Positions 17,697-57,362 are shown, counted from the stretch's first letter. The stretch is DNA of 64,000 nt from Candidatus Omnitrophota bacterium (GCA_018830005.1 JAHJTE010000001.1:709624-773623), one strand, 5' to 3'. The notes: a model not told the origin generated them from the letters alone. Program-made: numbers and translations.

Positions 17697-19412
17697 ATGC
17701 AAGATTTATTATTGAGCGTAAAAAAGCCAGCTCGTTATATTGGCACTGAGTTTAATGGCAATCATGGCCTAAAACAAGATGTGGCTGTAAAATTCGCCAT
17801 CTGTTTTCCGGGTCTATACGAGATAGGCATGAGTAATTTGGGTTTGAGAATAATATATGGTCTTCTGAATAGTCAGCAAGATTGTTTATGCGAGAGATTC
17901 TTTCTGCCGGCACCTGATATGCTTGGATTGATAAAGAGCAAAAAGGCTAAATTTACATCCCTTGAGTCAGGACGTAGTTTAAGTGATTTTGATATTGTTG
18001 GTTTTTCACTCCAGCATGAGTTAGATTATACAAATGTATTGCACATGCTAGAGCTTGCTGGATTGCCTTTTTTTTCGAGGCAACGCCATGAAAATCATCC
18101 TTTGATAATTGCAGGAGGTCCTGCCTTAGCTAATCCTGAGCCAATAGCTGATTTTTTTGACTTATTTATTATCGGCGAGGCAGAAGAGGCCCTTCTAGAA
18201 TTGACTGCTGAATATAAAAAGTTCCCTAGCAGGCTTAATCGCAAAGAATTGCTGGCGCGGCTTTCAAAGATAGACGGCATATATGTTCCAATGCTTAAAG
18301 GCAGAGTTGGTTTTTCTGTTAGGCGCCGATTCATTAAAGACCTAAATTCATCTTTTTTTCCGCAAGACTGGATTGTTCCTTATATCCCTATTGTTCATGA
18401 TAAGATAATGCTTGAGGTAATGCGCGGCTGTCCACATTCTTGTCGCTTTTGCCAGGCGAGAATGTTTTATTCTCCTTTTAGGATAAAGAGCAAAGAAAGG
18501 ATTGTTCAACTAGGTTTAGCAGCACAGGAGAAAAGCGGCTACGAAGAGATATCGTTGTTAGGTCTATCTTCCTTGGATCATCCCCAGATAAAAGAAATCT
18601 ATAGCTGTTTGACTGATGCCTTGCGTAGTCAATGTGTCGGCGTCTCTTTAGGTTCGCTGCGACCAAGCTCTAGGGTTTTGAATCTGCTGGAGATGACAGC
18701 CAAGATAAAAAAGGTCGGACTTACTTTGGCCATAGAAAGCGGCTCAAACTGGCTGCGGCAGCTTATAAACAAGCAAATAGATATGGATTCATTAAAAGAA
18801 TTGATTCAAGCTTGTTATTCTAAAGGCCTAAGACGGATTAAGCTCTATTTTATGTTCGGCCTGCCTTTTGAGAGAGAGGATGATCTGGAATCAATTGCCG
18901 ATATAATCTACGAATTAGCTCATATAGGAGGCAGGCTTAGAAAGAATCTATTGTTTTCAGTAAGCATTAATCCTTTTATTCCTAAACCACATACTGTTTT
19001 TCAATGGCATCCTATGGATGATTTGAAGACCTTAGATAGAAAAAAGAGGTTTTTGATTTCAGCAATTTATAAGCGGATCAAGAATGTAAAGATTAGTTTT
19101 CATTCTCCTGGTATGAGTTATGTAGAGGCGCTTCTTGCTCGTGGCGACAGAAAGATGTCTGGACTTATTATCGAGGCATTTAAAAGAGGTGCGCTAATGG
19201 ACTCTTACGGTGATTATTTTAATTTTGACTTATGGCAGGAGGCTGAAAAAGCAGCTGGGATTGACGCCGGGAGTTATCTTTATCGTGAAACTATAGATGA
19301 GCAAAAATTGTGCTGGGACTATATAGATATGGGCTACGATAAAGAAAGGCTTAAAATAGAATACGAAGATGTTATTAAACTCGGGCGTATGAGGCCAGGC
19401 CAGGGGTCCTAA
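17697..19412 (+). CDS. uncharacterised radical SAM protein with an N-terminal B12-like/Rossmann region (TIGR03960-like)
   Basis: A CPHSCRFC (CX3CX2C) radical SAM cluster motif. Its position after rodA matches the TIGR03960 family context. Confidence 0.7.
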   Translation: MQDLLLSVKKPARYIGTEFNGNHGLKQDVAVKFAICFPGLYEIGMSNLGLRIIYGLLNSQQDCLCERFFLPAPDMLGLIKSKKAKFTSLESGRSLSDFDIVGFSLQHELDYTNVLHMLELAGLPFFSRQRHENHPLIIAGGPALANPEPIADFFDLFIIGEAEEALLELTAEYKKFPSRLNRKELLARLSKIDGIYVPMLKGRVGFSVRRRFIKDLNSSFFPQDWIVPYIPIVHDKIMLEVMRGCPHSCRFCQARMFYSPFRIKSKERIVQLGLAAQEKSGYEEISLLGLSSLDHPQIKEIYSCLTDALRSQCVGVSLGSLRPSSRVLNLLEMTAKIKKVGLTLAIESGSNWLRQLINKQIDMDSLKELIQACYSKGLRRIKLYFMFGLPFEREDDLESIADIIYELAHIGGRLRKNLLFSVSINPFIPKPHTVFQWHPMDDLKTLDRKKRFLISAIYKRIKNVKISFHSPGMSYVEALLARGDRKMSGLIIEAFKRGALMDSYGDYFNFDLWQEAEKAAGIDAGSYLYRETIDEQKLCWDYIDMGYDKERLKIEYEDVIKLGRMRPGQGS

Positions 19413-19467: not shown

Positions 19468-19496
19468 TTGACATTTAAAAAATAATCCGTTATAGT
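19468..19496 (+). promoter_or_regulatory. near-consensus sigma70 promoter TTGACA-N17-TATAGT heading island A
   Basis: TTGACA at 19468-19473, TATAGT at 19491-19496, inside the 200-bp gap before the GGDEF gene. Confidence 0.55.
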
Positions 19497-19611: not shown

Positions 19612-21057
19612 ATGAAAAAAAATAATAAAAAATCCAATTTATCCTCGAGAAGCTTAAAGGTAAAGCTTAAGTTGGCGTTTGCGCTATCTTCGGTTATCCC
19701 TATTTTGATTTTACTTAATATGCTAAACCCTAGCTTGTTTAGTTTTACTTTCAGGCTTAACGAGATACAGCCGATAACTATTAAGTTCTGGCCAATATTT
19801 ATAATTACTACAGTGATTGTAAGTCTGGGTTATTATATCTTGAAGCTGATAATCGATCCGGTAATTTCAATAAGTCGTGATGCCAAACATATAGCCCAGG
19901 GTGATTTCGAACGCGTAATTAAGGTCGGTGCTGACAGAGGGGATGAAATCGGAGATTTGAGCTTTGCCTTAGATAAGTTAACAACGCGAATTCGTAGTTC
20001 AATGCAAGAATTGAGCCAGTACGGCGAGAAGACCAAGAAGATAAATCTGGAGATTAATAAGCGCGTAGTGGTCTTGAGTAATCTCCTGCAGATAAGCACT
20101 TTAATCTCTCAAGGCGCAAACTTAAACGAAATACTACATTTAAGTGTAGATAGGATTATGGAGGTGGGTCAGTCAGAGATAGGTTTCCTGATGGTTAAAG
20201 AGCAGATGAAAAATGTATTGACGATGAGGTCTTTACGCGGCGTAGGCGCAGGGAGATTTGAAAATCTCGAAATCGCAATTGGCGAAAATCCTCTGGCGGA
20301 TTTAATCTATAGAAAAGAGGTTATAATCCTTGATCAAAACAACAAAGATACATCAAGAGAGGTTAACGCCTGGCAGGAAAAGTTTGCAATGCGCAATGCC
20401 GTCATAATACCTTTGTTTGTACGCGGCGATCCCTTGGGTATTATCTGTATTGCCAATAATAAAGAGAACTTTTCTTATACTTCTGACGATTTAGAAGTGA
20501 TTGAAATCTTCGTTAAACAGATAGCGATTGCGCTTGAGACAGATTTCTTACATTTCAGAGTCCAAAAATTAGAGGTAAAGGATGCCCTTACCGGACTTTA
20601 CAATGAAAGATTTGTAAAGGCACGTTTAGATGAAGAGATCAAGAGGGCAATTATTTACCAGAGGCCATGTGCCTTCCTCTTGTTCAATGTTGACAATTTC
20701 AAACGTTACTATACACTTTTTGGCGGCCTTGCCTCTGAGGCCGCACTTAAAAGGATTGCTCTCGTTCTGGAAGATAGTATTACTGATGTAGATAGGGTGG
20801 GGCGTTTTGGTGATAATGATTTTGCTGTAATTTTACCTGAGCGTAATAAAAAAGAGGCCAATAAGATTGCAGAAGATATAAGAAAGAAACTAGAGTTTGT
20901 TTTTAAAGAAGAACCAGACGCCAACAAGAGAATAACCTTAAGCGGTGGCGTAAGCGAAAATCCCATTGATGGCGTTTCTGCACAAGAGCTGGTTGTTAAA
21001 GCGCGGCAGATGCTGATGGAAGCAAAGGCAAGAGGCAAGAACCAGATAAAGGGTTAG
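19612..21057 (+). CDS. membrane HAMP-GAF protein with a degenerate GGDEF domain (GGEEF replaced by GDNDF, no RxxD I-site)
   Basis: Two TM helices and a HAMP region (DLSFALDKLTTRIRS), then a GAF-like region. The GGDEF fold is recognisable (LTGLYNERF...FNVDNFKRY...GRFGDNDFAVILPE) but the catalytic motif is altered. Confidence 0.8.
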   Translation: MKKNNKKSNLSSRSLKVKLKLAFALSSVIPILILLNMLNPSLFSFTFRLNEIQPITIKFWPIFIITTVIVSLGYYILKLIIDPVISISRDAKHIAQGDFERVIKVGADRGDEIGDLSFALDKLTTRIRSSMQELSQYGEKTKKINLEINKRVVVLSNLLQISTLISQGANLNEILHLSVDRIMEVGQSEIGFLMVKEQMKNVLTMRSLRGVGAGRFENLEIAIGENPLADLIYRKEVIILDQNNKDTSREVNAWQEKFAMRNAVIIPLFVRGDPLGIICIANNKENFSYTSDDLEVIEIFVKQIAIALETDFLHFRVQKLEVKDALTGLYNERFVKARLDEEIKRAIIYQRPCAFLLFNVDNFKRYYTLFGGLASEAALKRIALVLEDSITDVDRVGRFGDNDFAVILPERNKKEANKIAEDIRKKLEFVFKEEPDANKRITLSGGVSENPIDGVSAQELVVKARQMLMEAKARGKNQIKG

Positions 21058-21066
21058 AGTTTAACT

Positions 21067-21510
21067 ATGAGCGCATTTAAAAAAGTAATGGCAAAACAAT
21101 TAGGGGAGCTTCTGATTGAACGTGGAGTTATCGGGGCTAAACATCTTGAGAAGGCGCTTGAAGTTCAGAAGGAAAAAGGCGGTCTTATCGGGGAAATCCT
21201 TGTAGAATTAGGTTTTGCAAAGGAAGAGGATATAGCTCATGCATTAACTGCCCAGTACGGGTTTCCATACTTACCTTTAAAAAATTATGATATAGATTTA
21301 GAAATTGTCCGGATTATCCCTAAGAATGTAGCTATCCAGTACTGTCTTATTCCCATAGATAAGATCGGCACCTCGCTAACAGTTGCTATGTCTAATCCAT
21401 TAAATGTTCAGGCGATCGAGGATATAGAACTACTTACCAAGTGCAAGGTTCAGACTTTTGTAAGCACCCCTTCAGATATTAGAGAGACAATAAAGAAATA
21501 TTATAAATAA
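21067..21510 (+). CDS. stand-alone MshEN/T2SSE_N domain protein, a putative c-di-GMP receptor
   Basis: Two tandem copies of the MshEN-type motif, KQLGELLIERGVIGAKHLEKALEVQ and LIGEILVELGFAKEEDIAHALTAQ. No ATPase domain. Confidence 0.75.
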   Translation: MSAFKKVMAKQLGELLIERGVIGAKHLEKALEVQKEKGGLIGEILVELGFAKEEDIAHALTAQYGFPYLPLKNYDIDLEIVRIIPKNVAIQYCLIPIDKIGTSLTVAMSNPLNVQAIEDIELLTKCKVQTFVSTPSDIRETIKKYYK

Positions 21511-21558
21511 AACCCAATATTCCTCATCTTTGGTATTTATTTTTAATTTTTAATAACT

Positions 21559-23274
21559 ATGGTTTCTTTAAAAGAACGCCTTACAGAGATCCTGATTAAG
21601 AATAAAATCATCACGCGGGAGAACCTGGATAAGGCGATTGCAGTTCAGTCTAAAGAAGGCGGAAGGCTGAGCGATATCCTTGTGCGTTTAGGATATGTAG
21701 ACCAGAAAGACTTAGTTATTGCCTTAAGTGAAGGTTTGGGCCTGCCCCCGATTGACCTAAACCGTTTCAAGATTGAATCGGAAGTAACTAAACTTATCCC
21801 CCAGGAGACCGCAAGGCACTACCAGATAATCCCTGTATCAAAAATGGGTAATACGCTTACCTTGGCTATGGCCGATCCTCTCAACGTCTTTGCTATTGAT
21901 GCAGTCAAGACCTTGACAGGTTTTGATATAAATCCGATTATCGCAAAGCCGGAAGATGTGATGAATGCAATTACTCAATATTACGGAGAGGACTCTTACC
22001 AGGCTATAGAAGATATAATTGATGAAATGGGTAAAGATAGCGAGCTGGAAGTTATTAAGGATGAAAAGATAGATTATGCAGACGTGCAGGAATTGGCTCG
22101 TCTTACTCAAGAAGCCCCTGTAATTAAGATTACCAATCTTTTCCTAAAGCAGGGAATTGAAGCCAGGGCCTCGGATATATTAATTGAGCCGTTTGAGAAA
22201 AGTGTTCGCGTTAGGCTACGTGTTGATGGCATGTTAAAAGAGATTGAATCCCCGCCTAGATCTTTACATGCTTCCGTAGTCTCTAGGATTAAGGTAATGT
22301 CTGGAATGGATATAGCCGAACATAGGCTTCCTCAGGATGGAAGATTTAAGATCAAGCTAGAAGGCAAGGATGTTGATTTTCGTGTTTCAGTTTTGCCTTC
22401 TAGCTTTGGAGAAAAGGTTGCTTTGCGTATCCTGGATAAAACTACGGCAAAATTGGATATTACCCAACTTGGATTTGACAAGCATGCCGTGGAGGTTCTA
22501 AAAAAAAGTGCCCTTAAGCCGCATGGTATGATTCTTACCTGCGGCCCTACAGGAAGCGGTAAGACAACCACGTTATATTCTTTGCTTAAATTTATCGATG
22601 CCCCAGATAAGAACATTATTACAGTCGAAGACCCTGTAGAATACCAACTTCGCGGCATTAATCAGGTCACTGTAAATGTAGATATTGGACTTACATTTGC
22701 CAGTTGCCTGCGTTCTATCTTGCGGCAGGATCCTGACATTATTATGGTAGGTGAAATTCGCGATTTTGAAACAGTCGATATTTCAATTAAGGCCGCGTTA
22801 ACAGGCCATCTTGTTTTGAGTACGTTACATACTACTACAGCTCCTGGTTCTGTGATTCGGCTTGGAGATATGGGCGTAGAACCATTTTTAATTACCTCTA
22901 GTGTTATTGCTGTTATGTCCCAGAGGCTACTACGCAAGCTTTGCGAACGCTGTAAAGAAGAGATAGTAGTTAAAGAAGAGGTCTCCAAGAAGGTAGGCAT
23001 AAAGACAGGGACAAAGGTCTTTGCTGCAACGGCCTGCAAGAATTGTCTTAATACTGGTTATGCTGGCCGTTTAGGAATAATAGAGATTTTAGAATTAACC
23101 CCCAAGGTTAAAGAGTTGATACTTGGTCGGGTGCCGGAGGATGTGATTAAGAAAGCTGCTCGCGAGGAAGGGATGAAGACACTTCAGGAGGCTGGTATAG
23201 AAAAAGTTATCGAGGGCCTCACTTCTATAGACGAAGTTGTGCGCCTTACAGCGCCTGATAAAGAAATGGCATAA
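21559..23274 (+). CDS. pilB: type IV pilus assembly ATPase PilB/GspE (copy 1)
   Basis: A GspE-N domain, Walker A GPTGSGKTT, Asp and His boxes and a C4 Zn motif CERC...CKNC. Confidence 0.9.
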   Translation: MVSLKERLTEILIKNKIITRENLDKAIAVQSKEGGRLSDILVRLGYVDQKDLVIALSEGLGLPPIDLNRFKIESEVTKLIPQETARHYQIIPVSKMGNTLTLAMADPLNVFAIDAVKTLTGFDINPIIAKPEDVMNAITQYYGEDSYQAIEDIIDEMGKDSELEVIKDEKIDYADVQELARLTQEAPVIKITNLFLKQGIEARASDILIEPFEKSVRVRLRVDGMLKEIESPPRSLHASVVSRIKVMSGMDIAEHRLPQDGRFKIKLEGKDVDFRVSVLPSSFGEKVALRILDKTTAKLDITQLGFDKHAVEVLKKSALKPHGMILTCGPTGSGKTTTLYSLLKFIDAPDKNIITVEDPVEYQLRGINQVTVNVDIGLTFASCLRSILRQDPDIIMVGEIRDFETVDISIKAALTGHLVLSTLHTTTAPGSVIRLGDMGVEPFLITSSVIAVMSQRLLRKLCERCKEEIVVKEEVSKKVGIKTGTKVFAATACKNCLNTGYAGRLGIIEILELTPKVKELILGRVPEDVIKKAAREEGMKTLQEAGIEKVIEGLTSIDEVVRLTAPDKEMA

Positions 23275-23280
23275 ATTAAA

Positions 23281-24981
23281 ATGGCAACTTTAAGCAATAA
23301 GATATTAGAGATTTTAGTTAAGACAAAGCGCATCTCCCTTAAGCAGAAGCAGCAGGTTTTGTCTTTAAAGAAGCAAAAGGATTCATCAATCAAAGATATC
23401 CTTATTAATGAGGGTTTTATTTCTAATAAGGAGTTGTTAGCAGTTCTTTCAGAAGAATTTAGATTACCGCCTTTAGATCTATCTAAATATAAAATTGATG
23501 CGGAGATAATCAAGATTATTCCCGAACGCCTGGCTCGCCAGCATCATCTTATCTGCGTTTCTCAGATTGGCTCTACGATTACTGTGGCAATGAGTGATCC
23601 TTTAAATATATTCGCGCTTGATGATTTGCGGATTTTGACAAAAAAGGAAATTGATCCTGTAATATCAACTGAAAGCGATATAAACAAAGCTATTGAAAAA
23701 TATTATTGCGGGGACGTGGTTGCTATTTCTTCTTTGCTTGATGAGGGAGATAAAACAGCAGAGGTATTAAGTGTTGATGGCGAACAATCAAATATATCAG
23801 CTGTTATCGAAGAGAGCCAAAAGGCCCCGATTGTAAAAGTCGTTGATTTGATTATTGCCGAGGCCCTTTATAAACGGGCTTCTGATATTCATGTTGAGCC
23901 GGCTGAAGAAGGTTTACGAGTGCGTTACCGCATAGATGGCAATCTGTATGACACTCTTACATTACCGAAAAGCAATCAAAATGCTATTTTAGCGCGACTT
24001 AAGATTATGAGCGGTTTAGACATAACCGAATCAAGGCTTCCGCAAGACGGACGCTTTAAGATTAGGTTGGAATCAAAGGAGATAGACTTTCGTGTTTCTG
24101 CACTGCCGACGACATTTGGTCAAAAGTTCGTTCTGAGGGCATTGGATAAATCAAGTCTTTCTATGGGGTTGGATAAGCTTGGTTTCTTTCCAGAGAGATT
24201 GGCGCTGTTTAAACAGGCGATAGCAAAGCCTTATGGAATGATTTTAGTTACAGGGCCAACAGGAAGCGGGAAATCTACAACCCTTTATTCTATATTGAAT
24301 CGATTGAATACGATGGAAAAAAACATAATTACTGTTGAAGACCCTGTTGAGTATCAGATTGAGGGCATCACCCAGATACATGTAAAACCTGAGATTGGCC
24401 TTACCTTTGCTGCTGGATTACGTTCCATACTGCGTCAAAGTCCGGATATCATTATGATTGGTGAGATTCGCGATTCCGAGACAGCAGATATAGCTGTGCG
24501 TGCTTCTCTAATTGGGCAGTTAGTTTTTTCTACCTTGCACACAAATGATGCTGCTGGCGCAATCACACGTTTAATTGATATGGGGGTTGAGCCATTTCTT
24601 GTTGCCTCTTCAATTATTATGACCTGTGCACAGAGGCTTTGTCGTAAAATATGTAATGCCTGCAAAGAGCCAGTCGAAATCCCGGACAGTATCCTTAAAA
24701 AATTAACTCTAAGGCCAACCAAGACAGATACCTTTTATGCAGGACGCGGCTGTAACCACTGCAACAATACTGGTTATTTTGGCAGATTGGCAGCTTTAGA
24801 AGTCTTGATGATTGACGATAATATATGCAGGATGATTTTAAAAAAATCTTCTAGTGATCAGATTAAGGAATATGCAATTAAAAATAATGGCATGCAGACA
24901 ATCTGGGATGATATGATGCGTAAGCTTAAAATGGGTGCTACTACTTACGAGGAAGTTTTACGCGTAGCGATTGATACATAA
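23281..24981 (+). CDS. pilB: type IV pilus assembly ATPase PilB/GspE (copy 2, tandem paralogue)
   Basis: Same architecture as copy 1. Walker A GPTGSGKST, C4 motif CRKICNAC...CNHC. Confidence 0.9.
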   Translation: MATLSNKILEILVKTKRISLKQKQQVLSLKKQKDSSIKDILINEGFISNKELLAVLSEEFRLPPLDLSKYKIDAEIIKIIPERLARQHHLICVSQIGSTITVAMSDPLNIFALDDLRILTKKEIDPVISTESDINKAIEKYYCGDVVAISSLLDEGDKTAEVLSVDGEQSNISAVIEESQKAPIVKVVDLIIAEALYKRASDIHVEPAEEGLRVRYRIDGNLYDTLTLPKSNQNAILARLKIMSGLDITESRLPQDGRFKIRLESKEIDFRVSALPTTFGQKFVLRALDKSSLSMGLDKLGFFPERLALFKQAIAKPYGMILVTGPTGSGKSTTLYSILNRLNTMEKNIITVEDPVEYQIEGITQIHVKPEIGLTFAAGLRSILRQSPDIIMIGEIRDSETADIAVRASLIGQLVFSTLHTNDAAGAITRLIDMGVEPFLVASSIIMTCAQRLCRKICNACKEPVEIPDSILKKLTLRPTKTDTFYAGRGCNHCNNTGYFGRLAALEVLMIDDNICRMILKKSSSDQIKEYAIKNNGMQTIWDDMMRKLKMGATTYEEVLRVAIDT

Positions 24982-25001
24982 ATTTTTAAAGGGGAGATAA
25001 A

Positions 25002-26201
25002 ATGACAGTTTTCAAATATACGGCGAAAAATAGATCAGGTAAAAAGATCTCAGGCATGCTAGAAGCTGATAATCAGAATCTGGCTATTGAGACTTTGCGT
25101 AAGAAAGAATTAATACCTATTAGCCTATCGGAAGAGAAGGCAAAACGGCGTGTTAGTGGGCGCAAGGTTAAATTGGATGATCTTGTTATTTTTTCTCGTC
25201 AGCTGGCTACGATGGTTGATTCAGGAATTCCCCTTGTTCAGGCATTAAGCATTCTAGGAGAGCAGGTGCAAAAGGAAAATTTCCGGCAGGTGATTTTAAG
25301 GATACGTCAAGATATCGAAGAAGGTGCAGGTTTTTGTGATGCCCTGGCTAAGCACACAGCAGTATTTTCTCCGCTTTACATTAATATGGTAAAGGCAGGA
25401 GAAGCAAGTGGTTTATTGAATGAGATATTAGATAGGTTAGCTAATTATTTAGAAAAGGCAAGCGCCTTGCAGAGAAAGGTAAAATCTTCCTTGACCTATC
25501 CAATCGTGGTAATTGCCATGGCCTTAATTATTACTATCTTTTTGCTGGTTAAGGTTGTTCCAACATTTAGAGGTATATTTGATATGCTTGGCGGTACCTT
25601 GCCTTTACCTACGCGGATCTTGATTGGTTTCAGCGATATGTTGCGGCATTCATTCTTGTATATTGTAATTTTCTTAGTTGGTGTAGTATTCCTGCTTAAG
25701 AAATGGTCAAAGACTCCAAGGGGGAGAAGGACCATTGATTATTACCTACTCAAGCTTCCTGTCTTTGGCCCACTTTTAAAGAAAGTAGCAATAGCTAAGT
25801 TCAGCCGGACACTTTCTACGTTAGTAAGAAGCGGCGTTCCTATCTTAGGTTCCTTAGAGATTGTAGGCAAGACAGCAGGCAATAAAATAGTTGAAGAGGC
25901 ATTAGATAACGCGCGCAAGTCTATTAAAGAAGGTGAGCCTATTTCCGGCCCCTTGAGTGAAAGCGATGCGTTTCCGCCTATGGTAGTAAGGATGATTGCT
26001 GTAGGCGAACAGACAGGCGAGTTGGAGAAGATGTTAAGCAAGATCGCTGACTTTTATGATGAGCAGGTTGATGCCACAGTAAGTTCTATGACAAGTTTAA
26101 TTGAGCCAATGGTCATCGCCTTTTTAGGTGTTATTATCGGTGGCATTGTAGTCTCATTATTCTTGCCCATATTTAAGATTACGGAACTATTGGGAAGATG
26201 A
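25002..26201 (+). CDS. pilC: type IV pilus platform protein PilC (GspF family)
   Basis: Two GspF repeats and three TM helices. It follows the pilB genes. Confidence 0.9.
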   Translation: MTVFKYTAKNRSGKKISGMLEADNQNLAIETLRKKELIPISLSEEKAKRRVSGRKVKLDDLVIFSRQLATMVDSGIPLVQALSILGEQVQKENFRQVILRIRQDIEEGAGFCDALAKHTAVFSPLYINMVKAGEASGLLNEILDRLANYLEKASALQRKVKSSLTYPIVVIAMALIITIFLLVKVVPTFRGIFDMLGGTLPLPTRILIGFSDMLRHSFLYIVIFLVGVVFLLKKWSKTPRGRRTIDYYLLKLPVFGPLLKKVAIAKFSRTLSTLVRSGVPILGSLEIVGKTAGNKIVEEALDNARKSIKEGEPISGPLSESDAFPPMVVRMIAVGEQTGELEKMLSKIADFYDEQVDATVSSMTSLIEPMVIAFLGVIIGGIVVSLFLPIFKITELLGR

Positions 26202-26275
26202 GGTGTTTTTAGATCAGGGCTACAGGAATAATTTTTTAACCTAACTCTTTCATTATTAATTTGTTAAGAAAATTC

Positions 26276-26305
26276 TTGACTTTGTAATAGTTAGGTGTCT
26301 ATAAT
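26276..26305 (+). promoter_or_regulatory. sigma70-type promoter TTGACT-N18-TATAAT for the riboswitch-pilA transcript
   Basis: TTGACT at 26276-26281, TATAAT at 26300-26305, about 50 nt upstream of the GEMM element. Confidence 0.5.
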
Positions 26306-26352
26306 ATATTTTACAGGGCCTAATTTTTATGGTATACTTGAGGTAACATTGA

Positions 26353-26468
26353 AAAAGGCAAACCAGTCGTAAGGCTGGGACGCAAAGCTAAAGGGCCTTG
26401 TGAAAGGGTAGCCAGTTACCAATGAGAATAACCTATTTCAGGTGACTGGAATAGGTTTTATTTTTTTG
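26353..26468 (+). ncRNA. c-di-GMP-I (GEMM) riboswitch-like leader with a terminator expression platform (copy 1)
   Basis: GGCAAACC-AGTC-GTAA(GNRA)-GGCTGG-GACGCAAAGC-TAAAGGGCC matches the GEMM core (Vc2: GGCAAACCAUUCGAAAGAGUGGGACGCAAAGCC). It is followed by hairpin CCTATT...AATAGG plus a T-run at 26430-26468. Confidence 0.8.
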
Positions 26469-26578
26469 GCCGGGACTAATAAATGTCAAGCCAGAGGAAA
26501 ACGAAATTATTATTATTTTTCTAGAAACTGGGTTGATATGATAAGTTCAATCAAGGCCAAGAGAGGAGGTTGTTAATT

Positions 26579-27007
26579 ATGAGAAACAGATCAGGTTTTA
26601 CCTTGGTTGAAATCATGATTGTTGTTGCTATTATTGCTTTATTGGCAGCCATAGCAATACCTAACCTGTTGCGTGCTCGTCTCAATGCTAACGAGTCTGC
26701 ATCGATTGCTGCTATGCAGACGCTTTCTACTGCAGCCCAGAGTTATCGTTCAGCTAATCCTAGTTATCCTACTAACTTAGCTGCTTTGTCTAACGCAACT
26801 CCACCTTATATTGATTCTGTATTAGCAGGTGGAACAAAATCAGGCTATGCATTTATTTTGACAGGTACCACAAATGCATTTACTGCAACTGCTGCTCCTA
26901 GCACTGTGGGCACTACGGGTAATAGATATTTCTTTGTTGATGAAAGTGGTGTTGTCAGGTATGCTAGTGGCGCTGCAGCTACATCTGCAAGCAGCCCAAT
27001 TGAATAA
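26579..27007 (+). CDS. pilA: type IV major pilin (PilA-like), leader MRNRSG followed by FTLVEIM
   Basis: GGAGG RBS 9 nt upstream of the ATG at 26579 (the track start at 26570 is a TTG). Class III signal peptide G|FTLVEIMIVVAIIALLAAIAIPNL, 142 aa, Ser/Thr-rich C-terminal tail. Confidence 0.85.
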   Translation: MRNRSGFTLVEIMIVVAIIALLAAIAIPNLLRARLNANESASIAAMQTLSTAAQSYRSANPSYPTNLAALSNATPPYIDSVLAGGTKSGYAFILTGTTNAFTATAAPSTVGTTGNRYFFVDESGVVRYASGAAATSASSPIE

Positions 27008-27035
27008 GGATTCAACTTAAGGATTTACGAGAAAA

Positions 27036-27066
27036 GGCGCTTCTTTTTAAGAGGCGCCTTTTTTCT
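27036..27066 (+). terminator. intrinsic terminator after pilA
   Basis: GGCGCTTCT-ttta-AGAGGCGCC hairpin followed by TTTTTTCT. Confidence 0.65.
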
Positions 27067-27086
27067 AACTAGATATCTTTAAAGGA

Positions 27087-28856
27087 ATGAAAAGATCACA
27101 ACAAATTATACTTATTATCCTTGTCGGTTTATTGTTTTATTTTAATAGTCTTTTTAATGGGCTTGTTTGGGATGATGAGTTTTTAATCAAGGACAACCCT
27201 TATATCAGAAGCATTCCGACTGCTTTTTCTTACGCCTTTTCTAATGATCTATTCCCGGGAGAGCTACTATTTAAGCGGACTAATTATTATCGGCCCCTGC
27301 AGACACTAAGTTACTCTCTAGATTTTTTTATCTGGAAAGATACGCCCTTTGGTTTTCATCTCGCTAATTTAATCCTGCATATTATTAATGCCCTTTTAAT
27401 ATATTTAATTATTTCCTGTCTTTATAATCTGCCTTTGGTTTCTTTTGTTTGTGCCTTATTCTTTGTAGCCCATCCTATTCATCATGAGGCAGTGAGCTAT
27501 ATCTCTGGCCGTGCAGATTTATTGGCAGCATTTTTTATCTTGAGCTCTTTTTATTGCTTCCTTAAATATAGACTCGAGAATATAGCTGTGCGGCGCAATT
27601 ATTTCCTTGTTTTATCATTTATTTGTTTCTTTTTAGCACTTCTTTCTAAGGAGTATGCACTTATCCTGCCTTTCCTATTTTTATCCTTTGATTTTTCTTT
27701 TCAAAAATTAAATAGAAAAAATCTAGGCCAATACGTTTTCTTCTTACCCCTGATATTCCTCTTTATCATGTTGCGACTTTCTGCTTTAGGATTGGATAAT
27801 TCATTGCTGGGCGGCAGATATGCACATTTACTTTGGCAGGAATTGCCGATTCGTTTTTTTGGTTTTATAAAAAGCATACCGCTTTACTTAGGTATTTTAA
27901 TTTTTCCGGTTGATTTGCATATGCGCAGAGCCTTTCCCAGACCTGCAGGCCTTTTCGATCCTTTAGTATGGATTGGTATTTTTATTTTGCTCAGTTGTTA
28001 CTTCATTTTTTATAAAAGGAGAAAACAGGAGCCGCTTTATTTATTTTTGTTTCTTTGGTTTTTGATTCCTGTAGTTTCTCAATCACAGCTAACGCTTTCC
28101 GGATTTGGCTTTGCCGAGCACTTTTTATACCTTGCCTCAATGGGCGTCTTCTTTGCTTTTGCAAAGGTTTTTGTGGGCCTTTTTCTTAAATTTAAAGCAA
28201 GGGCGCAAAAACAGAGATTTATCGTTACTATACTTTTAATCTTACTTAGTTTTTATGGCAGCTTGACGAGTGTCCATAATCTTAACTGGAAGGATAGTCT
28301 GACATTCTATAAGTGGACGCTGAAGTTTTCACCCGAGAGCATTAAGTTGCGCATAAATCTAGCCAGAGAGTATATTGCCCTAGGTAGGGATGATCTGGCC
28401 TTAGTTGAATTCTTACGTGCTAAAAAGTTATTAGAGCAAGTGGAGGTATCTAAATATAAAGATAAACCAATTTTAGATTGGACTCTGAATGAGGCGATAG
28501 TAGTCGGCTATTACAATGTGGCTGTGCTTCATGCCAGCCAGAAAGATTATACAAGGGCGGAGCAGGAATATCGGCTGTCCCTTGCGATTAAGCCAAATTT
28601 TAATAAGGCACGTAATAATCTAGCTGCCTTATTGACCAAGCTAGGCAGAGATAAAGAGGCGATAGAGCAATTGTCGCTTGTTTTGAGTTCTGATCCAGAA
28701 GATTTAAAGGCATATTATAATCTGGGCGCAATCTTAGCGAATCTAGGCGAAGATGAAAAGGCAAGGCAGGTCTGGCAAGATGGCTTAAAGATAGATCCGG
28801 ATGATGCCAAGATTGGCGATGCGCTTGCGAGGCTCCTGGAAGAGAAGAAGAGATGA
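27087..28856 (+). CDS. PMT/TMTC-like GT-C glycosyltransferase domain (DUF1736-like, NGLVWDDEF motif) fused to a C-terminal TPR array
   Basis: About 11 TM helices and an acidic DD(E/F) motif in the first periplasmic loop, as in protein O-mannosyltransferases. C-terminal TPR repeats (YYNVAVLHASQKDYTRAEQEYRLSLAIKPN...). Confidence 0.65.
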   Translation: MKRSQQIILIILVGLLFYFNSLFNGLVWDDEFLIKDNPYIRSIPTAFSYAFSNDLFPGELLFKRTNYYRPLQTLSYSLDFFIWKDTPFGFHLANLILHIINALLIYLIISCLYNLPLVSFVCALFFVAHPIHHEAVSYISGRADLLAAFFILSSFYCFLKYRLENIAVRRNYFLVLSFICFFLALLSKEYALILPFLFLSFDFSFQKLNRKNLGQYVFFLPLIFLFIMLRLSALGLDNSLLGGRYAHLLWQELPIRFFGFIKSIPLYLGILIFPVDLHMRRAFPRPAGLFDPLVWIGIFILLSCYFIFYKRRKQEPLYLFLFLWFLIPVVSQSQLTLSGFGFAEHFLYLASMGVFFAFAKVFVGLFLKFKARAQKQRFIVTILLILLSFYGSLTSVHNLNWKDSLTFYKWTLKFSPESIKLRINLAREYIALGRDDLALVEFLRAKKLLEQVEVSKYKDKPILDWTLNEAIVVGYYNVAVLHASQKDYTRAEQEYRLSLAIKPNFNKARNNLAALLTKLGRDKEAIEQLSLVLSSDPEDLKAYYNLGAILANLGEDEKARQVWQDGLKIDPDDAKIGDALARLLEEKKR

Positions 28857-36874: not shown

Positions 36875-38729
36875 AAAATTAGCAATTTCTATAAGTATTT
36901 TCTTTTTCTTATTTTTGATATTACAAAATACTTCAGGTCCTGAGTCATTAGTTATCGCAGAGGAATTAGAGCTGGAGGATTTATCGCAACTCTTTGAGGA
37001 AGAGATTGATGTAGAAATTTTTGGCCTTGAGGATGAGGTTTCTTCTGAGATTATGGCTGAAGAGCTTAATGAAGAGGAATTAAAGGCGGTAGAGGCTGAG
37101 TTTGAAGAGGCTGAAGAAATCTTTGGCCTAGGTCAAGAAGAGGAGGCCTTGGATATCCCAGAAGAGGTTGCAGCGGAAATTTTGGCAGAAGAGCTCCCTA
37201 TTGTTACAGAATCTGAGTTGTCGTCTGAATTAGACCAGCTTGAGCCGGCAGGAAAGAAGCTGGCCGAAGAGGTTACTGAGGTGCAAGAGGGGAAGACGCA
37301 AGAGGAGGAGTTACCGGTTACCAAGGTATCCCTTGATTTTAAAGAGGCAGATATTAGAAATGTGTTAAGAATCCTTTCTTATAAAAGTGGAGTTAATATT
37401 GTTGCAAGCCCTGAAGTAACCGGCTTAGTTACTATAAGACTTACTGATGTTCCTTGGGATAAGGCATTAGATGTGGTGCTTGATACTTATGGTTTCGGAC
37501 ATGAACGCAAGGAAAACATTATTACGGTTTATCCTATGGAAATGCTTACTGCAAGAAAAAGCCAAGAGCAGGCGTTAGCGGCAGTTCAGCCTACAGTAAC
37601 TAAAGTTATAAAACTAAAGTTTATTGATGCTACTGATATGAAGAAGGCGCTTGATCCACAGCTATCTCCGCGCGGCAGGGTTACTGTTTTGGAGGCAACC
37701 GGTCAAGCTGGATGGGAATTTGGCGGCTCAGAGTTAGGTAAAAGAGCGCGCATAGGTGAAAAAACGAGCAGATCGAAAATGCTCATTATCTCTGATATCC
37801 CTCCGGTATTAGAAAGGCTAGAGGAGGTTATTGCTGAATTAGATGTGCGGCCAGAGCAGGTGTTAATTGAAGTGAGACTTTTGGAAGTAAATCGCGATAA
37901 ATTATCTGACTTAGGTATGGAGTGGGGTACAGGCTCTGATGGTACAGGCTTTATCGAGACAAGCGGTAAGGGTTTAGACGGAAGCTCAGAGACTCAACTT
38001 AGCGTCCAAGGCGAAACGCTTCAAGTATCGCCTTCGACGTTTTCTTCTAAGTCTGGTTTTTCTGGAATTACACCGTTTAATGCTGGCCTTACTGCTACAT
38101 TCCAAAAGATTACCGGCAGTCAGTTTCAGGCTATATTACATGCTGTAGCAGAGGACGTAGAAGTAAATACACTTTCAGCACCACGCATCTTGACATTGAG
38201 TGATCAGGAGGCGACTATCCTAATAGGAAGCAAATATCCTATTCTTACCTCTGATGTAAGTACAGAGGCAGGGGCGACAGTTACCACAACACTTGATTAC
38301 TATGAGGATATCGGAATCCAGCTTAATGTTGTGCCTCAGGTTAATGACGATGGCTATATTAATCTAATCGTACATCCTGCGGTAACTTCTATTTCAAGCT
38401 ACATAGGGGACAATTCCTATCCTGTAATAATAACCCGTGAGGCAGAGACACAGCTTTTGATTAAAGATGGCGAGACAATAGTCATTGGTGGACTGCTTAA
38501 GGATGTAAAGGGAGAGTCAGAAATTGGCATTCCATTTTTAAGTAAGATCCCTATTCTAGGTTTTTTATTTAGGCGCACGGTAGTAGATATAGAAAAGATC
38601 GATCTTTTAATATTTATAACTGCAAGAGTAGTTAAATCCGAAGGGGACCTGATAACGTTTAAACAAAGCGTAGAAACTCCGGTCAGAAATTTAATACCAG
38701 CAGAGCCCGTAATTAAAGAAGAAGAGTAA
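36858..38729 (+). CDS. pilQ: type IV pilus secretin PilQ with an acidic Glu-rich N-terminal extension
   Basis: GTG start after an AAGGAGGG RBS. AMIN/N0-N1-like domains and a C-terminal secretin signature (IVIGGLLKD...EIGIPFLSKIPILGFLF). Confidence 0.9.
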   Translation: MQVKIKKLAISISIFFFLFLILQNTSGPESLVIAEELELEDLSQLFEEEIDVEIFGLEDEVSSEIMAEELNEEELKAVEAEFEEAEEIFGLGQEEEALDIPEEVAAEILAEELPIVTESELSSELDQLEPAGKKLAEEVTEVQEGKTQEEELPVTKVSLDFKEADIRNVLRILSYKSGVNIVASPEVTGLVTIRLTDVPWDKALDVVLDTYGFGHERKENIITVYPMEMLTARKSQEQALAAVQPTVTKVIKLKFIDATDMKKALDPQLSPRGRVTVLEATGQAGWEFGGSELGKRARIGEKTSRSKMLIISDIPPVLERLEEVIAELDVRPEQVLIEVRLLEVNRDKLSDLGMEWGTGSDGTGFIETSGKGLDGSSETQLSVQGETLQVSPSTFSSKSGFSGITPFNAGLTATFQKITGSQFQAILHAVAEDVEVNTLSAPRILTLSDQEATILIGSKYPILTSDVSTEAGATVTTTLDYYEDIGIQLNVVPQVNDDGYINLIVHPAVTSISSYIGDNSYPVIITREAETQLLIKDGETIVIGGLLKDVKGESEIGIPFLSKIPILGFLFRRTVVDIEKIDLLIFITARVVKSEGDLITFKQSVETPVRNLIPAEPVIKEEE

Positions 38730-38763: not shown

Positions 38764-38801
38764 AACCCTTGGCAGATTTGTTTGTCAGGGGTTATTTTCT
38801 T
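38764..38801 (+). terminator. possible intrinsic terminator after pilQ
   Basis: CCCTTGGCAGA-tttg-TTTGTCAGGGG hairpin (11 bp with 3 G·U pairs), then TTATTTTCTT. Confidence 0.35.
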
Positions 38802-38823
38802 AAGGCACAATTGGCGAAGTCAA

Positions 38824-39132
38824 TTGAAAGCGAAGGTTATTATCGAAATAAAATTTTCAAAGTGCGGCCTAATGCGTTACATATCTCATTTGGATTTGTT
38901 GCGGTTATTTAGGCGTGCAGCAAGCAGGGCAAAGATTGCCCTAGAGTTAACACGCGGCTTTAATCCGCATCCAAAAATAAGTATAAATAGGGCATTGAAA
39001 TTAGGCGAAGAATCCGATGCGCTTTTTTGTCAATTTGGACTAGAAGCAAAAATGGATACACAGGAGTTTGCAAGCCGTTTGCAGCAGGAGTTACCCGAAG
39101 GGATAAGCATAAAGCAAGCCAAACTAATATGA
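38824..39132 (+). CDS. TIGR03936/DUF2344-like 'radical-SAM-linked' protein, short form
   Basis: IEIKFSKCGLMRYISHLDLLRLFRRAASRA...GFNPHPKIS matches the family N-terminus. The start is proposed at the in-frame TTG at 38824 (the track start at 38782 is also a TTG). The stop overlaps the rng ATG (ATGA). Confidence 0.5.
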   Translation: MKAKVIIEIKFSKCGLMRYISHLDLLRLFRRAASRAKIALELTRGFNPHPKISINRALKLGEESDALFCQFGLEAKMDTQEFASRLQQELPEGISIKQAKLI

Positions 39133-40625
39133 CTAAATTTATTTTAATTAATTCTGGAACGCAAGAGAATCGCGTTGCTATGCTTAAGGATGGAAAACTG
39201 GAAGAATTTTTCATAGAGAGAGTCAATAAGCGAACTATTGTCGGTAATATTTATAAAGCCAGAATTGATTCAATAGCAACATCTTTAAACGCTGCCTTTG
39301 TCGATATCGGATTAGGAAAGAAGGGTTTTCTTTATTTATCCCAGCCTGCTTTTGGTCCTGAATTCAATGATGATGATGTTGATAATTTAACTCTTGCAGC
39401 TTCCCCCCAGGTTAAAAAAAACGGGCGTTTAAATGTAGGTCAGGAGATTCTTGTCCAGGTAGTAAAAGAGCAATTTGGCACCAAGGGGCCGCGGCTGACA
39501 ACCAAAATATCATTGCCCGGCAGATACTTGGTAGTAATACCATATAGCAATAATATCGGTATTTCCCGGCGTATTGACGAGGATGCTGAGAGAAAGCGCT
39601 TAAAGGATCTTATGCATTCGATGCGGCTTCCTTCTGATTTTGGATTTGTTATTCGCACAGTAAGCGTAGGCACAGACAAGAGGCAGTTGCATCGAGATGT
39701 AAAGTTTTTAATTAAACTCTGGCATAGAATCGCGCAGATCTCTCATCGTAGTAAAACGCCAGCATTAATTCATGAAGAATTCAATCTAATAATGCGCATT
39801 GTACGTGATTCATTTACTGAAGATGTTACGAATATATTCATAGATTCTAAGAGAGATTTTCATGCTATTAGAAGATTTGTCCGTATCTATTCTCCTAGTC
39901 TATTGCGTAAGGTTCTGTTTTACCGAGGCAAGGAACCATTATTTGAGAAGTTTAAAATAGAAGAAAAGATCGATGAGATTTATGAGCGCAAAGTAAATTT
40001 GAAATCAGGTGGTTATCTATATATTGAACCCACAGAAGGTCTAGTGGCTGTTGATGTTAATAGCGGAAGATTCAAAGGCCCTACTGCTGCAAGGGGTGTT
40101 AAGGCCCAGGAAGAGATGGCATTTAAGGTCAATATGGAAGCCGCAGATGAGATTGCCAGACAATTGAGACTGAGGGATTTGGGTGGGCTTATTGTAATTG
40201 ATTTTATTGATATGATAAAGGATGTTCACCGCAAGCGAGTATTTACCCACTTTAAGCAATTACTCAAACATGATAGGGCAAAGACAGATGTAATCAGAAT
40301 ATCTGAGTTTGGAATTCTGGAGATGACACGTCAGAAGCAGCGTTTAAGCGCTGAGAAGGTGTCTTTTCAAATCTGTCCTTATTGTGAGGGTAGGGGTAGA
40401 GTTAGAACAGTGGCCACAGTTGCTATCGCAGTTTTACGCATGCTTAATAAAGTCTTAAAAGAGCAAAAAAAGGGAAAACTATTAATTAGTTTACATCCAG
40501 ATGTCGTTGAATTCTTAAATCTGCAATATAAAGATACCTTAAAGGATTTACAGCAAAGATTCAAATCTTCCTTAATTCTTAATCCTAGTCCACATCTGCA
40601 CTTAGAGAAAATCATTATAGAATAA
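39129..40625 (+). CDS. rng: ribonuclease G/E-family endoribonuclease
   Basis: The start is taken at MTKFILIN. S1 domain and the RNase E/G catalytic core (VAVDVNSGRF, DLGGLIVIDFIDM). Confidence 0.9.
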   Translation: MTKFILINSGTQENRVAMLKDGKLEEFFIERVNKRTIVGNIYKARIDSIATSLNAAFVDIGLGKKGFLYLSQPAFGPEFNDDDVDNLTLAASPQVKKNGRLNVGQEILVQVVKEQFGTKGPRLTTKISLPGRYLVVIPYSNNIGISRRIDEDAERKRLKDLMHSMRLPSDFGFVIRTVSVGTDKRQLHRDVKFLIKLWHRIAQISHRSKTPALIHEEFNLIMRIVRDSFTEDVTNIFIDSKRDFHAIRRFVRIYSPSLLRKVLFYRGKEPLFEKFKIEEKIDEIYERKVNLKSGGYLYIEPTEGLVAVDVNSGRFKGPTAARGVKAQEEMAFKVNMEAADEIARQLRLRDLGGLIVIDFIDMIKDVHRKRVFTHFKQLLKHDRAKTDVIRISEFGILEMTRQKQRLSAEKVSFQICPYCEGRGRVRTVATVAIAVLRMLNKVLKEQKKGKLLISLHPDVVEFLNLQYKDTLKDLQQRFKSSLILNPSPHLHLEKIIIE

Positions 40626-52616: not shown

Positions 52617-53282
52617 ATGAAAAGAAAAGGTTTTAGTTCATTAGAGTTAATAATTGGCTTAGCCCTTACGGCTATTATGGCTACTATGGGCATTGTTAAT
52701 TTCAGTAGCCAGGATGCGTTATTGCTTGATGCTGCAGCCCAAAAAGTTGTCTCTGACTTAAATTACGCCAGGATGTTGGCTATTGACATGGGAGAGCAAA
52801 GCGAATATACTTATTCTGGAGGCGAAGCAGGCGAGGAGGCAGGCAACTTTGTGGTTATGGATTTTAGTGATGAGGCTTCAACTCTTCCTAGTTCTTATCG
52901 CGCTGTTCCTGCGTTACAGCTGCCTGCAGAAACTGGAGATCCTGTTGGCACAAGAATTAGTGTGTTATATGAACCGGTAGTGAGAAATATTACAGAAAAA
53001 GTTGAACTTTTTTTTCCTAGTGAAGATGATTTTAAACAAGTCAAGATACAATCTGTAGACTTTGGCGATGACGGATCAGGCGGCGCTTATAACGCTGTTC
53101 GTTTTGAAGGACCTACAGGCAGACCAATGAACGGTACCTGGGTTATGGGGAATGATGAAAATGCTTATTTTTCAACTGATACAGGATTGGGAAGTTCAGG
53201 TGGCATTATTGTTGTAGAGTATAATGGCAGAACTAAGATAGTCAGGATTTCTCGTATCGGAAGGATTACTATTGAAAATTAA
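52617..53282 (+). CDS. prepilin-type pilin-like protein, KG|FSSLELIIGLALT
   Basis: ATG with a GAGG RBS. Class III signal peptide. 221 aa with a Gly-rich C-terminal domain. Confidence 0.7.
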   Translation: MKRKGFSSLELIIGLALTAIMATMGIVNFSSQDALLLDAAAQKVVSDLNYARMLAIDMGEQSEYTYSGGEAGEEAGNFVVMDFSDEASTLPSSYRAVPALQLPAETGDPVGTRISVLYEPVVRNITEKVELFFPSEDDFKQVKIQSVDFGDDGSGGAYNAVRFEGPTGRPMNGTWVMGNDENAYFSTDTGLGSSGGIIVVEYNGRTKIVRISRIGRITIEN

Positions 53283-53790
53283 TAATATTAGTAACAGATT
53301 GCATAAACTGTTAATTTTAAAAGCTCCATCAGGTCTATCACTGATGGAGCTTTTGGTTGTTATTGTCATTATCGCAGTATCCTTATTGCCTCTCTATGCC
53401 TTATTCAATCAAGCAATACTAGCCCATGTAACTGCTCAAGTTATGACTACTTCTTCTTATCTTGGCCAGTATGCTATGGAAAGTATGTTGTCCAAGGATT
53501 TTTTTGAGCTTCTTAACGAACTTGATAGTGATGTGCATTCTTATGGCAACGATACTGTCTTTGCTGGCCCTTTTTCTAAGTATAAATACACAATAGAGGT
53601 TGATGCTATTGATCCTGAATACGGTGGCGCTGGAGGGGATTTAGCTGATATAAGTGCGAGAGTTAGTTCAGCTGATGGCGTTGCAAGCGGCAGTTATCTG
53701 CGTATCTATGTAAGGATAACAAATGATATTCAGCCCGGTAAGCAATTAGAACTCTACAGTATAGTCACACCAGCAGGAGACGGGTATTGA
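53272..53790 (+). CDS. prepilin-like pseudopilin, ...APSG|LSLMELLVVIVIIAV
   Basis: The track start is a TTG overlapping the upstream gene, so the true start is uncertain. Methylation-type motif with L at +1. Confidence 0.55.
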   Translation: MKINNISNRLHKLLILKAPSGLSLMELLVVIVIIAVSLLPLYALFNQAILAHVTAQVMTTSSYLGQYAMESMLSKDFFELLNELDSDVHSYGNDTVFAGPFSKYKYTIEVDAIDPEYGGAGGDLADISARVSSADGVASGSYLRIYVRITNDIQPGKQLELYSIVTPAGDGY

Positions 53791-53791
53791 T

Positions 53792-54331: not shown

Positions 54332-54334
54332 CCA

Positions 54335-56917: not shown

Positions 56918-56953
56918 CCTTCCTAGATAGACCCCAAATTTCAAACCAACTAC

Positions 56954-57343: not shown

Positions 57344-57362
57344 TGTGAGGATAAGACTAAAG

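Follow-up and report, generated by a model that had tools for sequence, protein, structure and literature searches.

What does a receptor domain for cyclic di-GMP (c-di-GMP) do when it is encoded as a protein of its own, without an ATPase, directly in front of two genes for pilus motor ATPases? The question is raised by a locus of Candidatus Omnitrophota (GCA_018830005.1), of which we examined a stretch of 64,000 nucleotides (nt) (JAHJTE010000001.1:709624-773623, hereafter the window), and of which all open reading frames (ORFs) of at least 100 amino acids (aa) were scanned. A small gene for a 147-aa MshEN protein is followed there by two pilB genes. The answer that we favour, with a probability of about 0.6, is that the 147-aa protein, which would descend from an old duplication of the N-terminal domain of PilB, is a free-standing receptor for c-di-GMP, probably of high affinity, and serves the type IVa pilus motor in trans. 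The three ORFs lie, all on the + strand, where an earlier reading made from the sequence alone (the sequence-only reading) had placed them, and the first is, as that reading said, a lone MshEN domain with two c-di-GMP motifs:

21067..21510, + strand: free-standing MshEN protein, 147 aa, no ATPase (Pfam, NCBIfam, AF2 model, family alignment)
21097..21168, + strand: c-di-GMP motif I, residues 11-34, QLGELLIERGVIGAKHLEKALEVQ (consensus match)
21169..21183, + strand: 5-residue spacer KEKGG (length equal to that of the published spacer)
21184..21255, + strand: c-di-GMP motif II, residues 40-63, LIGEILVELGFAKEEDIAHALTAQ (match to the extended consensus)
21256..21507, + strand: C-terminal alpha/beta subdomain of T2SSE_N1 type, residues 64-147 (PF05157 at 64-146, Foldseek)
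21559..23274, + strand: PilB1, 571 aa (Pfam MshEN and T2SSE; TIGR02538 646.6 bits)
23281..24981, + strand: PilB2, 566 aa (Pfam MshEN and T2SSE; TIGR02538 639.5 bits)

MshEN (PF05157) is the sole Pfam domain in the 147-aa protein (residues 64-146, E 3.9e-19). That profile spans the C-terminal subdomain only, and the 53 motif-bearing residues 11-63 match the NCBIfam model NF053729 'c-di-GMP_motif' with 59.7 bits at a cut-off of 38; these two matches are the outcome of the profile search that had been proposed as a check. The motif consensus used here, (R/K/L)LGxx(L/V/I)(L/V/I)xxG(L/V/I)(L/V/I)xxxxLxxxLxxQ in two copies with a 5-residue spacer, differs from the original form, which begins RLG, in that position 1 of the published motif was later widened to (R/K/L). 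The protein reads QLGELLIERGVIGAKHLEKALEVQ - KEKGG - LIGEILVELGFAKEEDIAHALTAQ; relative to V. cholerae MshE the register is kept throughout, with a constant offset of +2. All key residues of both motifs are kept save position 1, which is Q in motif I and L in motif II where MshE has R; motif II also carries a conservative F at position 11 and A at position 12. That L corresponds to L196 of the GSPII-B domain of T. thermophilus PilF, which binds c-di-GMP at 6 nM, a hydrophobic residue at position 1 of motif II raising affinity (PMC11731258).

The residues equivalent to those of MshE are L12, G13, G20, L27, L31 and Q34 in motif I and I41, G42, G49, I56, L60 and Q63 in motif II. When the best 120 of 4,529 protein matches were aligned, the contact residues (L12, G13, L27, L31, Q34, I41, G42, I56, L60, Q63) proved invariant or near-invariant, as did the turn glycines G20 and G49. 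In motif I, G13 is found in 120/120 family members and L12, L27, L31 and Q34 in 108-119 of them, and K10, just before the motif, is kept in 112. Of the spacer glycines, G39 is invariant and G38 nearly so; in motif II, G42, L60 and Q63 are invariant and L40, G49 and I56 near-invariant.

The AF2 model of the protein (pLDDT 89.6) has helices at residues 12-18, 24-37, 41-47 and 53-64, followed by an alpha/beta part. Its best Foldseek match is MshE with bound c-di-GMP (5htl, TM 0.81-0.85, E 3e-12) and the next is PilF GSPII-B with c-di-GMP; the EpsE-N1:EpsL, GspE:GspL and X. citri PilB-N:PilZ complexes are matched as well. Both marks of an MshEN domain are thus present, the tandem motifs and the four-helix bundle with a T2SSE_N1 fold, and among the MshEN domains of the locus it is the free-standing 147-aa protein that has preserved its c-di-GMP motifs best. 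Motif and fold together predict that it would bind c-di-GMP. In the C-terminal subdomain the blocks YGFPYLPL, PIDK and MSNPLN are almost invariant across the family, and in the model this subdomain is likely a docking surface for other proteins.

Relatives of the 147-aa protein are encoded in 348 species genomes (one genome per species was scanned). The best 80 of the 348 are all from Omnitrophota, the complete genome of V. archaeovorus LiM among them, and in these 80 the operon position of the small gene is identical. In the V. archaeovorus LiM record, CP019384.1, the cassette occupies about 1,219,386-1,233,823. Occurrence in 348 genomes and constancy of position in the 80 examined argue that the small gene is not there by chance. 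The identical protein is annotated in a Candidatus Omnitrophica metagenome-assembled genome (MAG) as MBU2541028.1. The best 120 protein matches share 58-90% identity and are mostly of 147-153 aa. Over 56 genomes the mean pairwise identity is 73% for the free MshEN, 65% for the PilB1 N-domain and 53% for the PilB2 N-domain; in a set of 35 genomes, RodA (56%), PBP2 (49%) and the GGDEF-like protein encoded upstream (48%) all fall below the free MshEN. To the PilB N-domains of its own genome the protein is 36-37% identical. A truncated pseudogene or a split PilB was rejected on this distance, on the uniform length of 147-153 aa and on the 73% identity. By these comparisons the 147-aa protein is an old, strongly constrained paralogue of the PilB N-domain rather than a recent split.

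The cassette around the gene is equally constant. Among 85 non-redundant loci, the order GGDEF-like gene, MshEN, PilB1, PilB2, optional insert, PilC is found in virtually all loci whose flanks are long enough. Directly upstream of the small gene lies the GGDEF-like gene in 83/85 and PilT in 2/85, PilB1 and PilB2 are the next two genes wherever the contig is long enough, and the stop codon of one gene often overlaps, or comes close to, the start codon of the next. The same cassette, at about 70% protein identity, occurs in records named 'uncultured Planctomycetales/Planctomycetia bacterium' (L014, L017, L020, L021, L024, L030, L033, L040 and others); judged by these sequences, the labels are probably wrong.

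Free MshEN proteins also come in a longer form. In some Omnitrophota, variants of 212-221 aa have the motif-bearing four-helix subdomain duplicated and hence four motifs (L004 10001-10639 and L005 1479-2117; also P0010-P0012, P0014, P0016, P0019 and P0027), which predicts two c-di-GMP sites per protein. A search of 1.84 billion cluster representatives returned many distinct MshEN-only proteins of 140-230 aa, one of them encoded directly 5' of PilC, and the free-standing architecture is thus common in metagenomes.

The two ATPases that follow are 45% identical to each other. Pfam finds MshEN and T2SSE in both (T2SSE E 1.9e-134 and 2.8e-131), and in their translations the Walker A, Walker B, Asp box, His box and tetracysteine motifs are intact and the N1 and N2 domains present. 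PilB1 has GPTGSGKT, ITVEDPVEY, DIIMVGEIRD, LSTLHT and CxxC...CxxC; PilB2 carries equivalents. The PilB model TIGR02538 is the best match for each, at 646.6 bits for PilB1 and 639.5 for PilB2, just under its equivalog cut-off of 675.65. Against the solved PilB of Geobacter and Myxococcus the two score 530-565 bits, against solved PilT 111-133 bits. They stay under the cut-offs of the PilT family TIGR01420 (182.7 and 187.8 bits, cut-off 319.1) and of TfpB NF053534 (455.0 and 454.1 bits, cut-off 850). Both paralogues are PilB-type, and we regard them as extension-type motors that arose by duplication within the lineage. Two apparent PilB1-PilB2 gene fusions (L044 7321-10842 and L081 7589-11101, ORFs of about 1170 aa) would have spoken for a hetero-oligomer, but were rejected as artefacts of masked N runs at the junction, which appear as X in translation.

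The N-domain motifs of the two PilBs are less canonical, as the sequence-only reading had it: neither fits even the relaxed published pattern. In PilB1 of the window the position-3 glycines have become T and S, G10 has become K and Q24 has become G. The position-3 glycines are likewise replaced in the PilB1 of 69 other genomes (T, S) and in the PilB2 of 56 other genomes (I/L, R/K); both in the window and elsewhere, motif I mostly has K in place of the glycine at position 10, and where motif II should close with a glutamine PilB1 has G and PilB2 has E or Q. The substitution G11L in V. cholerae MshEN abolishes c-di-GMP binding. On the PilB2 N-domain, whose motifs are more decayed than those of PilB1, NF053729 scores 23.7 bits, below its cut-off, and judging from these residues the PilB2 N-domain has likely lost c-di-GMP binding.

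Two groups of distant relatives are informative about what the free domain might do. In L090 and L091, two independent assemblies, the free MshEN has 156 aa, is 39% identical to the 147-aa protein, and scores higher against the free family (125 bits) than against any PilB N-domain (67-77 bits). The gene order there is a short degenerate GGDEF, PilT, MshEN, an N-domain-less PilB1 orthologue, a PilB2 orthologue and PilC. This PilB1 orthologue (L090 3070-4257, L091 2976-4163) has 395 aa, is 56% identical to residues 184-568 of PilB1 with no N-terminal region, and shares its first 23 nt with the end of the free MshEN gene. A PilB1 without an N-domain beside a free MshEN is the best available hint that the latter acts on PilB1 in trans. 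In L092 the free MshEN is 43% identical and holds the same chromosomal position after rodA. The order there is HAMP-GGDEF, MshEN, a single PilB (49.6% identical to PilB1, 48.2% to PilB2) and PilC, with PilS/PilR-like genes, and the HAMP-GGDEF protein looks active (RYGGDEF, RRYD, FKELNDKYGH). The arrangement in L092 suggests an ancestral module of cyclase, receptor and motor, in which the duplication of PilB and the decay of the cyclase came later.

Does the upstream gene of the window still make the ligand? Not mentioned in the sequence-only reading, it looks like a local cyclase gene at first sight and ends 9 nt before the 147-aa ORF:

19612..21057, + strand: HAMP-GAF-GGDEF membrane-anchored protein, 481 aa (Pfam, NCBIfam)

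Its GGDEF domain is recognised by TIGR00254 (106 bits) and by Pfam. In an alignment with orthologues and canonical GGDEF proteins, however, the active site of the protein reads RFGDNDF (GDNDF), FKRYYTLFGG stands in place of FKxxNDxxGH, and the I-site is TDVD, not RxxD, so that the diguanylate cyclase signature of GG(D/E)EF with KxxND...GH is lacking from 19612-21057. Of 81 orthologues at this position, two have GGDEF, one has AGDEF and 12 have RxxD, GDDEF and GDNEF being commonest. We thus rejected the gene as a local diguanylate cyclase, the active site, the substrate residues and mostly the I-site being lost here and in about 95% of orthologues. From these residues, the protein is probably not a cyclase and would derive from a local cyclase that was once active and has since lost catalysis; it is probably now a membrane sensor or scaffold.

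Genes for c-di-GMP turnover are found inside the operons of relatives. In the 50 loci of the survey with a complete PilB2-PilC interval, that interval holds a REC-HD-GYP gene in 37, is empty in nine (as in the window), and holds a GGDEF-AAA-HEAT gene with a second free MshEN in two and a second free MshEN alone in two. The GGDEF-AAA-HEAT protein (L001 13960-18549, L008 13922-18518) has 1,375 aa, with an N-terminal GGDEF domain (RYAGDEF, full substrate-binding residues), AAA_16 and HEAT repeats. The second free MshEN, divergent and of 153-171 aa, follows it in L001 and L008 and stands alone in L040 and L057.

We argue that sensing of the pilus signal has probably moved to a detachable subunit. 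The N-terminal four-helix bundle of the 147-aa protein would bind one c-di-GMP through its two tandem 24-residue motifs. Its C-terminal alpha/beta subdomain, the module by which GspE docks on GspL and which PilZ contacts in X. citri PilB, would make contact either with the motor, where PilB1 is the likeliest partner, or with the PilM/PilC platform. Ligand binding could then license or tune pilus assembly by PilB1 and PilB2, whose own N-domains lack key ligand-contact residues. The extreme conservation of the small protein, the decayed motifs of the PilBs, the PilB1 without an N-domain in L090 and L091, the turnover genes in the operons of relatives and the cyclase-MshEN-PilB order of L092 all point this way, and the detached sensor module that the sequence-only reading had suggested fits these comparative data. 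The choice of partner follows from synteny and L090, which suggest the motor. That the regulation is activating is assumed by analogy with MshE and PilB, for which a 2024 review describes c-di-GMP binding at the N-domain as requisite for proper function.

Several observations weigh against this reading. Motif I begins with Q, a residue found neither in the strict set that has been published nor in the relaxed one, [RKPN]; substitutions at the equivalent Arg9 of MshE change affinity fivefold at most. The N-domain of PilB1 scores 52.5 bits with NF053729, above the cut-off of 38. Loss of binding by this N-domain is, from its motifs, uncertain; PilB1 may bind c-di-GMP itself, which weakens the argument for outsourced sensing. 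Mirror-tree analysis does not discriminate between partners: the partial r is 0.40 for the PilB1 N-domain, 0.38 for the GGDEF-like protein and 0.36 for the PilB2 N-domain, correlations over all proteins being 0.79-0.87 and the partial ones 0.22-0.40. The operon in the window holds no cyclase or phosphodiesterase; the only apparently active cyclase in the window, a CHASE2-GGDEF gene with canonical RYGGEEF and RxxD (50500-52227, - strand), lies 25 kb from the motor genes on the other strand. Finally, the most constant neighbour of the free MshEN is the GGDEF-like gene and not PilB, the two being adjacent even in L092.

The alternative that survives best, though we think it improbable, is that the free MshEN is a decoy or brake. 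It would mimic the N1 domain of PilB and compete with PilB1 and PilB2 for a site on PilM or PilC, so that extension is inhibited or gated and c-di-GMP switches the decoy on or off. Its C-terminal subdomain is indeed a canonical N1 module, almost invariant and matching EpsE-N1:EpsL and GspE:GspL, and small protein inhibitors of extension motors have precedent (PilB cofactor review, PMC11656802). However, the PilB1 of L090 and L091, with no N-domain of its own, fits complementation better than competition.

Slightly less probable again is a c-di-GMP-dependent motor selector. Here the free MshEN would choose which PilB (or PilT) engages the pilus machine, by docking on the platform or on a PilB N-domain, and the dead GGDEF protein would supply localisation or input. 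If true, a soluble exchangeable N1 domain, rather than allostery within the ATPase, would switch extension behaviour.

We are more doubtful that the partner is the HAMP-GAF-GGDEF-like membrane protein, the two forming a sensor-receptor pair whose output is perhaps outside the pilus, for example in exopolysaccharide or transcription. In 83 of the 85 loci the free MshEN gene is preceded by the GGDEF-like gene, often with overlapping or near-touching codons; the pairing is kept in L092, where there is a single PilB, and the partial correlation is 0.38. For M. xanthus, PilB has been reported to signal to exopolysaccharide production. Yet in L018, L067 and L090 a PilT gene separates the two, the second class of free MshEN stands directly before PilC with no GGDEF-like neighbour, and the free MshEN gene is always inside the pilus motor operon.

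A further proposal, made by the sequence-only reading, was that PilT is absent and that PilB2 may act in retraction or in an alternative extension mode under the detached sensor. It is correct that the 64-kb window, in which all ORFs of at least 100 aa were scanned, holds no PilT-type ATPase. As a statement about the genome the claim does not follow, the window being too small: 64 kb of an 848-kb contig carries little weight and is not evidence of genome-wide absence. A PilT from this genome was also absent among the matches listed in a search with the PilT of L018 (best 120 Omnitrophota PilT clusters) and among the accessions checked in the MBU254xxxx range of this MAG. As to an alternative mode, A. 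baylyi uses PilB and TfpB as two extension motors for one pilus (PMC11656802).

Against a retracting PilB2, the protein is PilB-type in every test (TIGR02538 639.5 bits; PilT 187.8 against a cut-off of 319.1; tetracysteine motif; N1 and N2), and PilT is common in the phylum. The L018-PilT search matched at least 120 clusters, with identities of 66-86%, and many of these bear the name Omnitrophota PilT, so by sequence PilT is widespread in Omnitrophota. PilT genes stand inside the cassette, usually directly upstream of the free MshEN, in L018 (2889-3959), L067 (3467-4531), L073 (3710-4774) and L090 (1561-2622); they encode proteins of 354-356 aa, 48% identical to a P. aeruginosa PilT sequence. 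In L067, L073 and L090 PilT co-occurs with both PilB paralogues in one cluster, and the KO lists of two Omnitrophota genomes (Seymour et al. 2023) both contain K02652 (pilB) and K02669 (pilT). From this distribution, the ancestral cluster may have included PilT, which would since have been relocated in most Omnitrophota. The PilB-type scores, the spread of PilT and the inability of the window to show absence from the genome leave the inference of retraction by PilB2 unsupported, and we regard this proposal as very unlikely.

Least probable of all is that the free MshEN no longer binds c-di-GMP and is a structural, N1-like assembly factor whose motifs reflect the needs of the four-helix fold: many motif residues do form the hydrophobic core of the bundle, the GSPII-A domain of T. 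thermophilus PilF is similar in sequence and does not bind, and motif I starts with a non-canonical Q, but contact residues without a core role (both glutamines, both position-3 glycines) are near-invariant, the PilB N-domains of the same genomes keep the fold without those residues, the motif-bearing subdomain is duplicated in some variants, and c-di-GMP turnover genes lie inside the operons of relatives.

How does a detached receptor serving the motor in trans compare with known systems? No description of the Omnitrophota MshEN-PilB cassette was found in the literature searched. ATPase-less MshEN proteins and two-motor pili are already known, and the arrangement described here is a variant of these. 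The 147-aa protein shares with the MshEN domain of MshE from V. cholerae (5HTL; Wang et al. 2016, PMC5013675) the fold of two subdomains and the two 24-residue motifs with a 5-residue spacer, but in MshE the domain is fused to a T2SSE ATPase, whereas here it has a gene of its own, and position 1 is Q/L here and R/R there. With GSPII-B of T. thermophilus PilF (8PDK; Neissner et al. 2024, PMC11731258) it shares L at position 1 of motif II, the absence of a motif arginine and the structural match; GSPII-B, however, is one of three tandem domains in one ATPase, and its motif I begins with K, where the protein here has Q after K. P. aeruginosa PA3740, which has MshEN without an ATPase and is cited as binding c-di-GMP (Wang 2016, Suppl. 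Table 4), is a precedent for the free-standing form. Its C-subdomain is highly diverged, it is described as having a role in swarming and it is not described in a pilus motor operon, whereas here a canonical N1 module precedes two pilB genes.

Relay by separate proteins also has a parallel. In the PilB-PilZ-FimX system of X. citri and P. aeruginosa (7LKM/7LKO; PMC8389850), separate proteins relay c-di-GMP to the N-domain of PilB, and one partner has a degenerate GGDEF domain; there the EAL domain of FimX serves as receptor and a protein of PilZ fold as adaptor, whereas here the separate protein is itself MshEN. A. baylyi PilB and TfpB (PMC11656802) are likewise two extension-type ATPases with one type IVa pilus machine. 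Unlike that pair, neither paralogue here is TfpB; the two genes lie side by side, each groups with PilB, and a free MshEN stands alongside.

The gene scan of the window places the cassette in a complete type IVa pilus set (19612-38729), all of it on the + strand. The core runs from the HAMP-GAF-GGDEF gene through the free MshEN, PilB1 and PilB2 to PilC; a pilin, two tetratricopeptide repeat (TPR) proteins, minor pilins, a PilX-like protein, PilM, PilN, PilO and the PilQ secretin (ending at 38729) follow 3' of PilC. On the 5' flank, also on the + strand, are mreB, mreC, mreD, pbp2, rodA and a radical-SAM gene of family TIGR03960; after PilQ come a fragment of the radical-SAM-associated family TIGR03936 and RNase G. 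The remaining features are:

19468..19496, + strand: promoter-like site TTGACA-17-TATAGT, 11/12 match, in the gap 5' of the GGDEF-like gene (consensus scan only)
25002..26201, + strand: PilC platform protein, 399 aa (Pfam T2SSF twice; NCBIfam PilC models 451 and 435 bits)
26430..26457, + strand: terminator-like hairpin, 12 pairs and a T-run, 3' of pilC (consensus scan only)
26570..27007, + strand: major pilin candidate, 145 aa, with N-methylation motif (Pfam, NCBIfam)
27087..30790, + strand: two TPR proteins, 589 and 645 aa, with C-terminal TPR regions like PilW, Tgl and PilF
30903..34367, + strand: minor pilins of 170 and 213 aa, a PilX-like protein of 500 aa and a 169-aa protein without assignment (Pfam)
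34364..38729, + strand: PilM, PilN, PilO, an unassigned 130-aa protein and the PilQ secretin (Pfam)

The promoter-like site at 19468..19496 is a possible start of the operon, and it is plausible from these consensus matches that it and the terminator-like hairpin give the operon start and end, although the counts of such sites are not above those in shuffles (promoter-like total for the region 28 vs 19.5 +/- 4.1). In the two TPR proteins (27087-30790) the N-terminal 380-470 aa or so have no family match, and the family likeness is limited to the C-terminal TPR region. The pilus cluster sits between the TIGR03960 gene (17697-19412) and the TIGR03936 gene (38782-39132), two genes that are usually adjacent or fused. 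The TIGR03936 ORF has 116 aa and covers profile positions 3-95 of 209, and the RNase G protein starts about 36-48 residues into the ORF 39027-40625 that overlaps it; with its length, its partial cover and this overlap the TIGR03936 gene looks truncated. A second pilin-like gene group lies at 52617-60831 in the window. It includes two proteins with N-methylation motifs (53272-53790 and 53792-54331), a protein of 860 aa that matches no family (54335-56917), one of 569 aa whose N-terminus is GspG-like (58607-60316) and a minor pilin that is ComP_DUS-like (60337-60831).

What the MshEN/N1 domain contributes in PilB-type motors was described as poorly understood in the 2024 review. An MshEN on a separate polypeptide would let sensing and catalysis be studied as separable parts, and in some relatives the free MshEN is the only N-domain available to one motor. 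Omnitrophota are uncultured, ultra-small and probably host-dependent, and their type IVa pili are thought to mediate host attachment (Seymour et al. 2023); the regulatory cassette described here is widely conserved in this phylum, with relatives in 348 species genomes. Phylum-wide decay of the cyclase, set against an active version in a distant relative, makes a clear case of a local c-di-GMP module that has been rewired.

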